Shown: positions 21,956 to 27,976 of the stretch, piece after piece
Layout of the letters: every line of letters begins with the position of its first letter
Numbering within the stretch: position 1 is the first letter of the stretch
Origin: Escherichia phage vB_EcoM-RPN226
Sequence record: OL770073.2
Strand: one strand, 5' to 3'
DNA length: 64,000 bases
Notes under the pieces: generated by a model
The model's database searches: none
Told to the model about the DNA's origin: nothing
The model's input: the letters and a program-made list of their open reading frames with translations, nothing else
Program-made: the position numbers and the translations under genes

Positions 21956-23934
21956 TGTGATATAGGCTCCAAATCGATAGTTAAGTATTGTGGACGTAAA
22001 TCATTTTCAAATACAATCAGTGAACCATCGCGTGTGAAAATAACATCGTCTATTGGATCAGAATATAGCTCAATAGTCTGAACCTCAAATTTATCGGATG
22101 TTAAATTAATTTTAGCGATATTCCAATAAATCATGTCAGCTGGATAATTTATTTCACCGATAACGTAGTATTTGTCGCGTCCATCGGAACTTGCTAATTT
22201 ATTAAAATCATTGCCTGTATATGGCTGAATGTTTTCATTTTCTGTAACATCGCCAGAAGCAAATGGACCAATAATAACTTTACCAATTCCTTTAGAATCT
22301 CGGTCTGTTGATACTATGCGAACGTCATATAATACATCTTCTTCTAAACCAGTATCAGGATTTACAACCTTTCGTCCAGAATTAAATGAAAACGTATTAG
22401 ATTCCATAGAACGATCTTTTATTTGATTATTGTATTTAATACCTGCTTCAGGCGTTTTATAGAAGTTTTGTACTTCACGAACAATTTGAATTGTCGCTGA
22501 TGAACCAATGATAGAATGATCTGCATCATCTACATATGTCAACATCTTAGATTTAGCGAAAGATGAGTTAAAAATTTCTACGTCTTCGGTATAATAACGA
22601 TCAATTTTATCAATTATTTGACCTTCGAGCCACTGTTCGGATTCTTGCAGCTTATTTAAAGCATATGTGACTTTTAAATTAGTCTTAATAAAAAGATAAT
22701 TAGGAGAAATAATTGATGGCGTAATAGGAGCTAAATTATAGTCTTTGAGATAATTTTTAATATCTTCGCGCTGTACAGTAGTTAAATACAACCCTGATTT
22801 AGGTTTAGCCGCAATAAATGCATAACCAGGTTTAGTAGAATCAGTGAAAGTCTGAACTGCTTGAATAATAGAACCAAATCTCTCTGAGACGAATGTATCA
22901 TAGTCAGTTGCAGTTACGCAGCGTTGCTGGGTTTCGCGTTTAATAGTACCCAATTCGCGAATACGTTCAATATCTTCTGGATCGCCGCCGCCATCTGCCC
23001 CAACAAAATCTGGGTCATCGTTTGGATTTTCATTAATGTTGATGACAGTTATATTTGTTAATGTATCTGCATATGAAAATCCGACTGCGCCATTCGCATC
23101 TGCGCCGTTAGTACTGATGTACTCAATAACAATCGTAGAGTTCTGAGTAGGTTTAAGACCCCCAATATAATTAGCAGTCAATGCTCCTTCTGCCGCATTA
23201 ACAGAAATCTCACCTTCACCAAAATAAAACTCAGTATTTCCATCAATAGTTTCACGCATGTAGTAAATTGTTGATGTAGAACCAGCATGAACCATTGACT
23301 TTCTTGTCCAGTTAATCCATTCTGCTCCATCAACGTACAGTTTAACTTGGTTTCTATCTATATTTTTGTCATAAATGATAATAGGTGTTAATTTATCATA
23401 AATGATTTCAGTTCTTACTATACGTCCCTGGGCTAATTTTAAACGCGGAAAATACTGGTTATTTTTATCGCGAATAGCAATAACATCTTCGGTAGATACA
23501 AAGTTATAAGGATTAACTGAAGTATCTTTTGCATATGCTAAAAAGCGAGTACCACGAGGAATAGTAATGTAATTTCTATTCAATGCATCTGTACAAGTTA
23601 GCATAATTTCAGTTTGAGCAGCTGATTTTGAAGTAGGTAAATATCCATTATCTTGTGCCGCTTGAACTACTGAACTACGTAAGTTAGCAGTACGCATAAA
23701 ACTTTCATACACGGCAGCATTACCAAACTGCTGAATGTATAATGTATTATAAGCCAAAAGGTCGCACAGAACGTTTAATCTTGAGCCTTCAAAATCATAA
23801 TCCAAAAATTCATTTTGGCCATTAAGCCATTCAATGAGGTTTTGTTTTATTTCAGCAAATGTACCCCCGACGAATATCTCGGGAATAGCATTTGCTGTTC
23901 TTGTTAATTGATAATTTACAGGGGTATTTGCCAT
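21952..23934 (-). CDS. 6: baseplate wedge protein gp6
   Basis: 660 aa, identical length to T4 gp6. Confidence 0.85.
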   Translation of the reverse strand: MANTPVNYQLTRTANAIPEIFVGGTFAEIKQNLIEWLNGQNEFLDYDFEGSRLNVLCDLLAYNTLYIQQFGNAAVYESFMRTANLRSSVVQAAQDNGYLPTSKSAAQTEIMLTCTDALNRNYITIPRGTRFLAYAKDTSVNPYNFVSTEDVIAIRDKNNQYFPRLKLAQGRIVRTEIIYDKLTPIIIYDKNIDRNQVKLYVDGAEWINWTRKSMVHAGSTSTIYYMRETIDGNTEFYFGEGEISVNAAEGALTANYIGGLKPTQNSTIVIEYISTNGADANGAVGFSYADTLTNITVININENPNDDPDFVGADGGGDPEDIERIRELGTIKRETQQRCVTATDYDTFVSERFGSIIQAVQTFTDSTKPGYAFIAAKPKSGLYLTTVQREDIKNYLKDYNLAPITPSIISPNYLFIKTNLKVTYALNKLQESEQWLEGQIIDKIDRYYTEDVEIFNSSFAKSKMLTYVDDADHSIIGSSATIQIVREVQNFYKTPEAGIKYNNQIKDRSMESNTFSFNSGRKVVNPDTGLEEDVLYDVRIVSTDRDSKGIGKVIIGPFASGDVTENENIQPYTGNDFNKLASSDGRDKYYVIGEINYPADMIYWNIAKINLTSDKFEVQTIELYSDPIDDVIFTRDGSLIVFENDLRPQYLTIDLEPISQ

Positions 23935-23942
23935 TTTAAATC

Positions 23943-24236
23943 CTATTTAATGAATACTTTAGATGATGCCTGAGCCACAGTATCACCGCATGATATTGGA
24001 TCAGCCATTTGAACAGCTTTCTTTCCAGTGACATATACCTTAGAAGTTCTAGGTTGTGTCACTCCGCCATGTGTTTCATATGGCTTTTTAATTTCTGTAT
24101 GTTCTGTAATTGGATCACCTGCTACGAGAACAGCAATTCCTCCAGTGAATACTTTACTTTGTGTAGCATTCACAACCGTTGGAGGCCATGCTTCATGGCC
24201 GGCAGTAACACACTTATCATAACTTAATCCTGACAT
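23943..24236 (-). CDS. 5.4: baseplate spike tip protein gp5.4 (PAAR-like)
   Basis: 97 aa small protein between 5.1 and 6, size as T4 gp5.4. Confidence 0.75.
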
Positions 24237-24773
24237 TTATGGCCTCTCATACACGTAGCTTCTCAATTTATTAGCCCAACGACTCCAATTTCCAACTATA
24301 GTTTTTGTATAATTTTTAACAAGAGTTTTTCTTATTGGAGCTGGAGGATTCGTTGGTTCAGTAGTATCAGAAGATGACCTAGAATTACTGCCAGAACCTC
24401 CAGATTCACCTTGTTCTTGATAGTCATATATTAATGTTACTTCGTAAGTGAATGTCTTCTGGAGGTTTTGAGGAGCTTTCCATAGATATAACTGAGTATT
24501 AGAATCAGTTGGAAGGTCTTCCCATGAAGCAGCAGTTTTAAATTCATTATCTAAACGATATTTCAACACATCATTTCCAAATCCAAACACAGATTCATAC
24601 GTTCCATATAAACGATTTTCTTCTACTAAAATCCCAGGAGTTTCTTCGTAACTAGTTATATTTATAGATACTAACGTTTCACCTGTTTCTAATTGAGCGG
24701 TAAAGGTGACGTCGATAGAAGAACCTTCCATGGATTCTCCTAAATCAGCGCTCATTGGAAGTATATTAGCCAA
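24237..24773 (-). CDS. 5.1: gp5.1-like protein
   Basis: 178 aa ORF immediately upstream of 5.4; position as T4 5.1. Confidence 0.6.
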
Positions 24774-25632
24774 TTGTTGAATTCTCTAATGATGTAAATT
24801 TATAATCACATTTTTTCAACGCTTTTAAAATTGCGTTATAACTTACATCCGGGAGGTCGTGTTCAATTGCTTTTTCTCTAAACCATTTGTATTTCTGTGG
24901 ATGTGGTTTTCCCAAATCCTCCCAAAGTTTTTTGACTTTTTCTATACTAATCCAAGGTTCAACTGATCTTAGTTTTTTATTTCTAGCATCTAATCTCGAT
25001 TTTCTTATCAAAGGATCATTCCATGATTGTTTCGTTCCTTCTATTTTTCCTGGATGATTGATTAATTTGTTTCTATATTCATCAGATTTCCATAAAGATT
25101 TAACGGTATTAGAAATACGAATTTTTAATGTTGGATCATTTTCAAAAGCAGTTTTCATCGCATTACTCATTTTCTTTCGATATTCTGGCGATGCGCATCT
25201 TTCTTTGTTTATTTTAGATATTTTCTCTGAAAATTCTTTAGTTGACGTTGATTTAGCTAATGCCTTCAATTGAGCTTTCCTATATTCAGGATTAGACCAC
25301 ATTCTCTTCAAATCTTCGGATGAAAAACCATCACCGCCGGATTTTATATTGGTACATAGAATATCAGATGATTTATATTTCGAAATCCAATATCTTTCTC
25401 TTGAATTGAGGATTTCATAAGTAGAAACAAATTCAATTATTTCAAAATCTATTTTATAACCAGGTTTATTACGTATCTTTTTAATATAATCACCGGAACC
25501 TCTATACTTATCATTTTCTAAATCAAAATATCTAGATTCATGTTTACCAATATAAACCCGTACTAATCCTTTCGGATTAGTAACGGTTGTTTTATATATG
25601 TATCTAAATTGAACTGTGTTAGATTTTTTCAT
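24766..25632 (-). CDS. GIY-YIG homing endonuclease with repeated NUMOD3-like DNA-binding motifs (Seg-like)
   Basis: N-terminus FRYIYKTT...VRVYIGKHE resembles a GIY-YIG motif; C-terminal repeats WSNPEYRKAQL / SPEYRKKMS / WKSDEYRNKL / WNDPLIRKSRL are NUMOD3-like. Confidence 0.75.
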   Translation of the reverse strand: MKKSNTVQFRYIYKTTVTNPKGLVRVYIGKHESRYFDLENDKYRGSGDYIKKIRNKPGYKIDFEIIEFVSTYEILNSRERYWISKYKSSDILCTNIKSGGDGFSSEDLKRMWSNPEYRKAQLKALAKSTSTKEFSEKISKINKERCASPEYRKKMSNAMKTAFENDPTLKIRISNTVKSLWKSDEYRNKLINHPGKIEGTKQSWNDPLIRKSRLDARNKKLRSVEPWISIEKVKKLWEDLGKPHPQKYKWFREKAIEHDLPDVSYNAILKALKKCDYKFTSLENSTIG

Positions 25633-25648
25633 AATTCACCTCTGGAAT

Positions 25649-25656
25649 TATTTATA
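25649..25656 (-). promoter_or_regulatory. late promoter TATAAATA upstream of the GIY-YIG gene
   Basis: Plus-strand TATTTATA overlapping gp5 stop, 17 nt upstream of the GIY-YIG start. Confidence 0.5.
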
Positions 25657-27382
25657 AACCTACGTCTATACGGCTACCATCAATTGTGTATTGACCAGAT
25701 GAAATAGAACTCATAGATGCCATTTTTTCTGTCCAATCTCCACCAACGTCCCAATCAACTGTCCCAGCAACTTTCCAAGAAAGATTTCCATTTACTGTAT
25801 TAGTCTGATTTCCTTCAACTAAAGTGGTAGCATCCCCTTTAACTGTAATGTCAGCATTACCTTCAACTACAATAGTAACATTACCTTTGACTAGGATAGT
25901 TCCATTACCTTCAACTGTCTTAGTTTCATCGCCACGTACAAATATTGTATTGCTTCCATCTATTTGATGGAGACGATTATCCATGTTGTAATAAATTTCT
26001 GATCCACCGACGTTAGTCTTTTTATCGCCAGCTACCAAAAAATTACCATCAGCATTTGTTATATCATACAAATTATCAACAGTTTTTCTTGTTCTTCTTC
26101 CTGATGGTGATACTTCCTCATATGTTCCAGTTGGATGAACTAATCTGTATCGTTCTTGTCCCGGGGTATCGTCAAATTCCTGAATATGACCGCTTTCAGT
26201 TTCCATTGTGTGAACATACGGATATTCACCTTTATATGAAGAAACAGGTTCTTTGAATAAAATTCTTGAATCATTCGGAATAGGAGGGTCAGCCGGGTCA
26301 GAAGACTTTGCTACAGTAGCAGCCATTGCCGACAAAGACCTAGCTGGTGTTTTCACTTCAATACCATATGATTCCAAATTACCGGTAAGAATAATCATGG
26401 TAACACGGGATGCACGGCCTTTTGTTTGTTGATACCACAATGAATCACGACCAGCTTTATATGCTTTTTCCCAATCTCCGGCTAACATAGCAGTTAACAT
26501 TGTGTTAAATTTAGCTACACCGCCAACGCCCATCTGAAATGCCATATTTTCTAACGCCATTTGACGAGAACGATTAACTGCCTGCCAAACTGGGCCAACT
26601 TTAGAATGTGATTTAATGTCACGTTGCATATCAGCTAAATCACGTTCAAATAAAGTTACCGCTTCTTCCATTGTAATAGAACCTGGATTTCCGGTAATTT
26701 CACGACCAACTTGTTTTGATAAAACTTTATTAATTTGGGCCATATCACGAACTGGCTGCTTCATGATAAGATGACCAATACCAATTGTCGGATATCCTTC
26801 GGTATCCCAATAAACTTTTAGTCTTAATCCTTCATCGCGGCGAAGCATTTCAGCCATTGACATATTTGGATTATCATCAATTGGAATCTCTGATAGTGGT
26901 CTATCATCAGGATTTATCGCAGTGTCTAAATTACTATCTTGGATAATATTAGAAGACGAATCATATCCTACTTCTCCGCCTTGGTTTAATACGTTAGTAT
27001 CATTTCCTAGACGTCTAGGATACTGTCCAGTCGGGTCAGAAAATCCTTCAAGTCTATTAGGCTTTTCGCGAACTATTCCACCATACGTGCCAAGGACAAT
27101 TCCGTTAGTTTTCCATTTGTCTAAAAAATGACCATAAACTCTAGTTCCTTCTACCGGACCAGTAACGGAGCCTCCAATTCCAGACATTGCTGCAGAAGTT
27201 ATAGGTTGAATAACTGACATCCATGGTAATTTATCAGTTGGAATACCCATTACATCACCTTGCGCTCTTTGAGGTGGATGCAGACCAACCACACGAACAC
27301 GAACACGACCTAATTTTAATGGGTCCATTCTATCTTCAACAACACCAACAAACCAATTAAGGTTATTACTTATCATTTCCAT
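25652..27382 (-). CDS. 5: baseplate hub subunit and tail lysozyme gp5
   Basis: 576 aa; internal lysozyme domain EGLRLKVYWDTEGYPTIGIGHLI paralogous to gene e lysozyme; beta-helix-like VxGxxT repeats at C-terminus. Confidence 0.9.
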   Translation of the reverse strand: MEMISNNLNWFVGVVEDRMDPLKLGRVRVRVVGLHPPQRAQGDVMGIPTDKLPWMSVIQPITSAAMSGIGGSVTGPVEGTRVYGHFLDKWKTNGIVLGTYGGIVREKPNRLEGFSDPTGQYPRRLGNDTNVLNQGGEVGYDSSSNIIQDSNLDTAINPDDRPLSEIPIDDNPNMSMAEMLRRDEGLRLKVYWDTEGYPTIGIGHLIMKQPVRDMAQINKVLSKQVGREITGNPGSITMEEAVTLFERDLADMQRDIKSHSKVGPVWQAVNRSRQMALENMAFQMGVGGVAKFNTMLTAMLAGDWEKAYKAGRDSLWYQQTKGRASRVTMIILTGNLESYGIEVKTPARSLSAMAATVAKSSDPADPPIPNDSRILFKEPVSSYKGEYPYVHTMETESGHIQEFDDTPGQERYRLVHPTGTYEEVSPSGRRTRKTVDNLYDITNADGNFLVAGDKKTNVGGSEIYYNMDNRLHQIDGSNTIFVRGDETKTVEGNGTILVKGNVTIVVEGNADITVKGDATTLVEGNQTNTVNGNLSWKVAGTVDWDVGGDWTEKMASMSSISSGQYTIDGSRIDVGL

Positions 27383-27968: not shown

Positions 27969-27976
27969 TTATAAAT
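27969..27976 (+). promoter_or_regulatory. T4-type late promoter TATAAATA (for gene 4)
   Basis: Exact TATAAATA 28 nt upstream of gene 4 ATG. Confidence 0.6.

Follow-up and report, generated by a model that had tools for sequence, protein, structure and literature searches.

A probable Seg-type GIY-YIG homing endonuclease cassette at the end of gene 5 of a T4-like phage

Between genes 5 and 5.1 of Escherichia phage vB_EcoM-RPN226 lies a free-standing gene whose place is empty in most related phages, which raises the question of what it encodes and how it came to lie at the end of an essential gene. The window analyzed here is the whole stretch of 64,000 nucleotides of this phage (record OL770073.2), with positions counted from its first letter. 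The locus is arranged as follows.

25652-27382, minus strand: gene 5 (gp5, baseplate hub/tail lysozyme), upstream of the endonuclease gene
24766..25632, minus strand: free-standing homing endonuclease gene (288 aa; ORF list, T6 annotation, PHROG 314, pN/pS)
ATG 24731, stop 24237, minus strand: gene 5.1, downstream of the endonuclease gene
23943-24236: gene 5.4 (PAAR gene), downstream of gene 5.1 and followed by gene 6

In the ORF list of the window, the gene is read on the minus strand (24766-25632) as 288 codons without interruption. The original prediction had described a GIY-YIG endonuclease with tandem repeats at these coordinates. The coordinates, the N-terminal motifs and the repeats were all found in the sequence, the predicted position between genes 5 and 5.1 agrees with both the ORF list and the T6 annotation, and the strand is corrected to minus. 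Further downstream, the stop of gene 5.1 (24237) abuts the start of gene 5.4 (24236), and segC and 5.3 are both absent from the window. The protein is 100% identical to T6 AXN58183.1, which is annotated as 'seg-like hypothetical protein, T6ncORF142'; other records label the gene 'hypothetical protein', 'homing endonuclease' or 'putative Seg-like homing endonuclease'. Six seg-like genes have been counted in T6 (PMC2993671), and the endonuclease gene presumably belongs among them. A literature search returned no paper specific to the gene and no named or characterized enzyme at the 5/5.1 site, and Rfam gave no match across 23800-26200. The gene is thus an ordinary Seg-family gene for a free-standing homing endonuclease, already annotated but uncharacterized. 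Its catalytic domain occupies the following segment.

25321..25611, minus strand: GIY-YIG catalytic domain, residues ~8-104 (motifs YIY 11-13, YIG 27-29, Y43xGSG47, K56, E79, N95, GG 99-100)

The Pfam search with the whole protein gave nothing relevant and no hit to the GIY-YIG model PF01541, against which the N-terminal domain alone reached 13.7 bits, below the cut-off of 22.6. This miss is uninformative and reflects the sensitivity limit of the model, because T4 SegF and SegG, which are experimentally active, likewise have no Pfam hit. With the single sequence as a query, NCBIfam returned only a weak 'group I intron endonuclease' match and PDB nothing significant; PHROG 314 'homing endonuclease' was matched with E = 1.2e-25. 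The single-sequence search found 13 proteins only, three of which are orthologues (78-100% identity) and the rest ~30-37% identical, and from these 13 proteins a family profile was built. The profile matched the catalytic domain of I-TevI (1LN0, E = 1.7e-6), and in a search against 1.84 billion representative proteins it retrieved 99,254 relatives at E <= 0.001. Pfam domains detected in the closer relatives were SegE_GIY-YIG, GIY-YIG, NUMOD3 and I-TevI_DNA-bd, the first being matched by 8 of the 13 proteins.

In the profile alignment to I-TevI, YIY (residues 11-13) corresponds to GIY, YIG (residues 27-29) to YVG, E79 to E75 and N95 to N90, with Y13, Y27 and G29 aligned to I-TevI Y6 and Y17-V18-G19. 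Y43-x-G45-S46-G47, E79, N95 and the YIY/YIG motifs are invariant in the alignments of 13 and of 107 relatives; in the 107-sequence alignment the invariant positions include Y13, Y27, G29, Y43, G45, S46, G47, E79, N95, G99 and G100, and the conserved basic residues are K14, K21, K30, H31 and K56. The domain also has the beta-beta-alpha-beta-alpha fold of the GIY-YIG superfamily. The GIY-YIG motif that had been predicted at the N-terminus is therefore borne out, as the catalytic tyrosines, E79 and N95 align with I-TevI and stay invariant. The expectation that the catalytic residues would align held for the tyrosines and glycines, E79 and N95, but not for the catalytic Arg27 of I-TevI, with which no residue of the endonuclease is aligned in the profile, multiple or 107-sequence alignment. 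At this point I-TevI has an insertion relative to the endonuclease family, and R34 and R44 of the endonuclease are not conserved. We do not take the missing counterpart as disqualifying, because T4 SegA-F show the same gap in the multiple alignment and several of them are listed as active (PMC2988022, Table 1).

The rest of the protein is divided into two parts.

24961..25320, minus strand: linker and six tandem helical units, NUMOD3-like by pattern only (motif positions, shuffles, AF2 model)
24769..24960, minus strand: C-terminal three-helix module, residues ~225-288, shared with T4 SegA and SegF

Residues 105-224 hold six helical units of ~17-18 aa each, which start at residues 114, 130, 148, 166, 183 and 206 and are of the type [ST/ND]-P-E-Y-R-x-K-h-S. 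All four repeats claimed for the C-terminal half were found (WSNPEYRK at 112, ASPEYRKK at 147, WKSDEYRNK at 181 and WNDPLIRK at 204), but the total is six when the interleaved TKEFSEKISK unit is counted. Helices of the AF2 model start at residues 115, 129, 149, 167, 184 and 207, with pLDDT >90 for residues 140-190. A looser unit, [SND][PD][ELT][YIL][RK], which was picked after seeing the sequence, occurs five times at a spacing of 16-23 residues; in composition shuffles its mean count is 0.045 and its maximum 2, and 0 of 20,000 shuffles reach 5.

The assignment of these repeats to NUMOD3 is suggested by their pattern but was not reproduced with the Pfam model. Three units, SPEYRKKMSNAMK, TKEFSEKISKINK and DPTLKIRISNTVK, match the NUMOD3 pattern S-x-E-x-K-x-K-I-S by eye, and MAFFT aligns them with the Pfam-positive NUMOD3 units of protein P0008. 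The Pfam NUMOD3 model (PF07460) gave no hit at E <= 10 with either the whole protein or residues 105-288. A mini-HMM built from 16 bona fide NUMOD3 units yielded a marginal 4.1 bits, a score reached by 7 of 300 shuffles, and hhalign set a NUMOD3 unit on SPEYRKKMSNAMK with a likewise marginal P = 0.01. Among known proteins, T4 SegA and SegC reach the Pfam NUMOD3 cut-off, and I-TevI (19.3 vs. 20.4 bits) and SegB (12.5 bits) stay below it. A NUMOD3-like nature of the repeats is plausible but unproven from these comparisons. The helical units presumably form an extended DNA-binding region, and the C-terminal three-helix module is presumably a helix-turn-helix-like DNA-binding domain.

The boundaries of the insert can be read from the comparison of occupied and empty sites.

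25652..25678, minus strand: recoded gene-5 3' end, GGT AGC CGT ATA GAC GTA GGT TTA TAA (GSRIDVGL*)
24766..24774, minus strand: ATT GGC TAA, a relic of the original end of gene 5 that serves as the final two codons and stop of the endonuclease ORF
24732-24765: unchanged 34-nt spacer between genes 5 and 5.1, following the relic terminus

In empty sites, gene 5 ends with GG(A/T) TCG AGG ATT GAC ATT GGC TAA (GSRIDIG*), and the site reads ...ATTGATGG(A/T) TCG AGG ATT GAC ATT GGC TAA TATACTTCC.... The occupied site reads ...ATTGATGGT AGC CGT ATA GAC GTA GGT TTA TAA ATAATTCCAGAGGTGAATT ATG... on the left and ...TCA ACA ATT GGC TAA TATACTTCC... on the right, giving a net insert of ~0.89 kb. At the right junction, ATT GGC TAA is also found in F2, and L025 has AAT GGC TAA. 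About half of the last 21 bases of gene 5 are changed (Ser TCG to AGC, Arg AGG to CGT, and Ile to Val), and the tail is longer by one Leu codon. The combination of AGC CGT and the extra TTA was found in all 14 occupied copies (the window and 13 loci), which represent only three independent lineages, and in none of 16 empty sites (T4 and 15 IMG/VR loci). When IMG/VR was scanned for the recoded tail, only ZN18 was recovered, and the scan of JGI metagenomes gave one unrelated GC-rich chance match and nothing else.

Three putative control elements accompany the gene.

25649-25656, minus strand: T4 late-promoter consensus TATAAATA, spanning the added Leu codon, the new gp5 stop and three bases beyond it
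25637..25642, minus strand: Shine-Dalgarno sequence GAGGTG, 4 nt before the ATG, read from the sequence
25561..25582, minus strand: 9-bp hairpin with a GAAA loop on codons V-T-N-P-K-G-L-V, inside the 5' coding region (covariation)

A late promoter overlapping the gp5 stop had been predicted, and the exact consensus TATAAATA is indeed found there, co-oriented with the gene, overlapping the stop (TAA 25652-25654) and ending 16 nt before the endonuclease ATG. The 8-mer occurs 17 times in the window against 10.7 expected, a count that is not significant and makes the motif weak evidence when taken alone. However, each of the 17 copies points the same way as the genes around it, and 11 sit 13-39 nt upstream of a start codon, so that the copy at the endonuclease belongs to the same class as 10 others in the window. 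Furthermore, TATAAATA is kept in all three diverged lineages and missing from T4 and 15 other empty sites; judged from these sequences, the putative promoter comes with the insert and is not a resident promoter of gene 5.1. The Shine-Dalgarno sequence is GAGGTG or GAGGTA in the other lineages. An RNA structure sequestering the ribosome-binding site, as in I-TevI and mobE, was not indicated by the fold of -93..+18 (z = -0.65, not significant), and sigma-70-like promoters showed no excess over chance.

T4 segF also has a hairpin, located on the homologous codons. F2 and L025 keep it by paired synonymous changes (U-A to C-G twice and U-A to A-U once), and across five sequences (from only three lineages and segF) 95.6% of cells are paired and five of the nine pairs have changed on both sides. 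This covariation score was reached by 0 of 500 shuffles, and registers slid along the alignment are 20-47% paired. An intrinsic terminator has been reported in the 5' end of segF (PMC2988022). Termination at the hairpin of the endonuclease gene is uncertain, because its tail is CGGGUUUAUAUU, unlike the UUUU of segF; no clean U-tract follows it on the sense strand, and the terminator scan flagged it as terminator-like on the antisense (+) strand only. By analogy with the segF element, the hairpin probably holds expression down, whether by weak termination or by acting as an RNA-processing or translation barrier.

To see how the gene is distributed, the 5/5.1 junction of T4 was compared with phage records. 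The junction was matched by 530 records, in 489 of which it is contiguous (empty) and in 30 split into two places, so that ~6% of related records are occupied; DNA of the endonuclease gene itself is present in 37 records. The site is empty, with the 34-nt spacer, in T4 and in 15 of the 16 loci from IMG/VR. At the identical junction we found three lineages with 78-86% amino acid identity to one another, namely the type of the window and T6, the type of F2, ZQ3 and CEV1, and the metagenomic contig L025, and their backgrounds are classified as Tequatrovirus and Mosigvirus. The gene thus behaves as Seg-type genes do: it is a stand-alone gene, present or absent at a fixed site among close relatives.

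Between the three lineages, pN/pS is 0.16-0.23 and pS is 0.55-0.72. The low pN/pS shows that the protein is under selection, and at such a high pS it is meaningful that TATAAATA, the Shine-Dalgarno sequence and the recoded tail have been conserved. Within Tequatrovirus, among the window, T6 and T4_ev151, the endonuclease gene differs at 1-3 of 867 nt (99.7-99.9% identity), whereas divergence in the same genomes is 3.9-5.1% for gp5 and 3.4-7.1% for gene 5.1, which makes the gene about ten times less diverged than its flanks. The near-identical haplotype of the carriers is limited to ~200-400 bp upstream of the insert. As read from the sequences, this disparity is what recent horizontal spread with short tracts of co-conversion leaves behind, and not what vertical descent does, and the gene is probably still mobile. 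The possibility that T4_ev151 is a T4 derivative with a laboratory-acquired gene was also considered and rejected, as it is only ~97.5% identical to T4 across the region and so offers no direct evidence of an acquisition.

We therefore favor the reading that the insert is a Seg-type GIY-YIG homing endonuclease cassette of ~0.89 kb, lodged at the extreme 3' end of gene 5 in a T4-like (Tequatrovirus) phage and homing by the route proposed below, to which we assign a probability of about 0.82. The steps are modeled on I-TevI and on T4 SegA, SegB, SegE, SegF and SegG. The gene would be transcribed late from its own TATAAATA, with additional read-through from gene 5. With its helical repeats and the helix-turn-helix-like module at its C-terminus, the protein would bind a long, asymmetric site, and the tethered GIY-YIG domain would cut both strands of co-infecting genomes without the gene. 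The conserved stretch ...GATGG(A/T)TCGAGGATTGACATTGGCTAATAT... where gene 5 meets 5.1 is the likeliest target, with a predicted cut at or near GATGGATCGAGGATTGACATTGGCTAA in the empty site of T4 and T2. Recombination-dependent repair of the T4 type would then transfer a copy of the cassette, along with short tracts of its flanks, to the broken genome. Carriers themselves would be immune, because the insert splits the site and recodes its left half (TCG AGG to AGC CGT).

The target may lie elsewhere than the junction, because some Seg enzymes cut hundreds of base pairs from their own gene, as for SegG, whose 'distant cleavage site' is cited in PMC2988022. In such a case the enzyme would be an active homing endonuclease that cuts away from the junction, at some other place in gene 5 or within 5.1, and the recoded tail would be a leftover of the donor brought in by co-conversion instead of an immunity patch. 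The Ser codon AGC is natural in the distant empty-site phages L018-L021, so the tail could be foreign, and the upstream near-identity of the carriers fits such a tract. Against this, AGC-CGT and the extra Leu are kept in three lineages despite nearly saturated synonymous sites, and the 24 nt replaced by the insert are invariant in empty sites whose neighboring synonymous positions vary. We regard cutting at a distance as unlikely, although it is the alternative that survives best.

The cassette may also be a self-contained, portable unit of immunity and expression. The recoded last seven codons of gp5 would let it sit in its own target with gp5 functional, the promoter would be formed from the new Leu and stop codons, the mRNA hairpin of the SegF subgroup would throttle expression, and the enzyme might repress itself as I-TevI does. 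Autorepression is conceivable because the promoter lies within a diverged remnant of the homing site. We put this elaboration forward tentatively, with clearly less confidence than the homing reading itself.

A different explanation is that homing has been lost and the gene is kept because it benefits the phage, whether by regulating as a DNA-binding protein, by providing genes 5.1-6 with a late promoter, or by driving recombination or gene amplification against host defenses. [quoted passage not shown] However, none of the invariant catalytic positions has been lost, only ~6% of related records have the site occupied, and the low divergence of the gene relative to its flanks points to recent horizontal spread, so we consider a retained benefit without homing improbable. 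Even less probable is an old, vertically inherited gene that was lost many times and is not mobile. Descent would also place all copies at exactly one junction, but the empty sites of 489 records, and those across genera, keep the uninterrupted ancestral end of gene 5, which loss would have to restore exactly, and a gene identity of 99.7-99.9% next to flanks of 93-97% contradicts co-descent. Finally, T4 segC displaced by one gene can be dismissed as having a negligible chance of being the ortholog, since the two share a Seg-type character and the 5-to-6 interval but have only 22% identity, other junctions and flanks, and coexist in T4_ev151; T4 segC sits between 5.1 and 5.3 and not at 5/5.1, in agreement with the caution in the original prediction that its position and sequence may differ.

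As a homing cassette, the gene would be an uncharacterized and, by prediction, apparently active addition to the classic Seg endonucleases of T-even phages. A stretch of ~60 bp holds its predicted target, the proposed immunity changes and the putative promoter, which makes the junction unusually readable. It is a convenient test case both for how free-standing endonuclease genes insert at the end of an essential gene without harm and for the role of the coding-region hairpin that it has in common with segF. In addition, the site would be a predictable hotspot of recombination and marker exclusion in the baseplate-hub region (genes 5, 5.1, 5.4 and 6) when T4-like phages mix, which is relevant to phage cocktails and directed evolution.

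Comparison with known systems places the endonuclease among the T4 Seg proteins. In the alignment with T4 SegA, B, C, E and F, it carries the Seg signature (YIGxH...D-x-Y-x-G-S-G...K-Y-G...E...Y-N-h-x-x-G-G-x-G), from which its clade departs by K-P-G for K-Y-G and T-N for Y-N. Of its T4 paralogues, SegF comes closest, with 32% identity across 167 residues (E = 1e-10). The two have in common the P-K-G insertion in the first beta-hairpin, GKHES, NDKYxGSG and CxNIxxGGxG, helical units of the type W/N-x-PE-x-[RK], a similar C-terminus (LWxxLGKP...VKALK), the GAAA-loop hairpin on the same codons and the failure of Pfam to detect them. They differ in that the endonuclease is 64 residues longer with more repeat units, and in insertion site and presumed target, as the SegF gene lies between 56 and soc with gene 56 as its presumed target. 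Moreover, the hairpin of segF is directly followed by UUUU while that of the endonuclease gene is not, and segF is described as promoter-less (PMC2988022), whereas the endonuclease cassette has its own late-promoter consensus.

SegA and SegB have the Seg signature motifs in common with the endonuclease (~28-29% identity in the multiple alignment) and occupy different insertion sites, and both are detected by Pfam, unlike the endonuclease. The C-terminal module of T4 SegA (IEKIKEIWENSGK...FPNKSYARMLEVF) matches residues 229-273 of the endonuclease, and T4 SegB has one LWSTPEYREK unit of the same repeat type. T4 SegC belongs to the same family and the same baseplate-hub gene cluster, at a different junction, its 22% identity being taken from the multiple alignment. 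I-TevI is encoded by the td intron of T4 (structures 1LN0/1MK0), whereas the endonuclease is free-standing, has no zinc finger and no Pfam hit to I-TevI_DNA-bd or NUMOD3, and, apart from the absence of a residue aligned with Arg27, has the Seg-specific YxGSG in place of the RxxxH segment of I-TevI.

Synonymous divergence is uneven along the Seg-type GIY-YIG endonuclease gene (24766-25632, minus strand) that lies between genes 5 and 5.1. Compared with the diverged F2-type lineage at the same junction, pS falls from 0.83 in the N-terminal domain to 0.39 in the C-terminal part. The corresponding values against the lineage from a metagenomic contig were 0.64 and 0.71. This unevenness suggests that recombination between lineages has taken place within the gene. 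In Tequatrovirus LF73P3 (OZ035756.1, 150441-151078, hit H125), the T4 5/5.1 junction query was matched in two pieces. The match spans 638 nt rather than 601 nt, which implies about 37 nt of additional sequence near the junction.

All 17 copies of the T4 late-promoter consensus 8-mer TATAAATA in the window have the same orientation as the local genes, being on the minus strand below about 28,000 and on the plus strand above it. Two of them, at 27970 and 27985, point away from each other in the interval separating genes 53 and 4. Besides the copy overlapping the gp5 stop, a second one was found downstream, and T4 carries the identical 8-mer at the homologous position in 5.1:
24659-24666, minus strand, TATAAATA within gene 5.1, 422 nt upstream of gene 5.4.

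Two small ORFs antisense to gene 5 were also detected, at positions that carry the repEB and repEA annotations (oriE region) in the T6 and T4 records:
27223-27360, plus strand, small ORF.
26056-26256, plus strand, small ORF.
The hairpin at 25561-25582, located in the 5' coding region of the endonuclease gene, is followed by ACGGTTGTTT when read on the plus (antisense) strand, and it was scored as terminator-like on that strand by consensus scan. The hairpin could also halt antisense transcription heading for gene 5 and the oriE region.

Further seg-like ORFs were identified in the baseplate-hub cluster of other T4-like phages:
L008 (T4-like phage locus), 4298-4954, seg-like ORF flanked by 5.4 and gene 6, sharing 37% identity with SegC.
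L014 (T4-like phage locus), 347-631, minus strand, seg-like ORF upstream, near genes 4 and 53.
The number of distinct Seg insertion sites in this cluster is at least three or four, counting T4 segC and the endonuclease gene at the 5/5.1 junction.

The segC site of vB_EcoM-RPN226 is empty: neither segC nor 5.3, the two genes found there in T4, is present, and the start of gene 5.4 immediately adjoins the stop of gene 5.1 (24236-24237). Escherichia phage T4_ev151 carries a single SegC-like ORF of 196 aa (L036, 8383-8973), whereas T4 has two genes at the equivalent place (L002, 8197-8792), segC with 140 aa and then gene 5.3 with 56 aa. T4 gp5.3 (MCGANNPRYGK...) corresponds to the C-terminal, HTH-like portion of the full-length T4_ev151 protein, and T4 segC/5.3 therefore looks like an endonuclease gene split by a frameshift.
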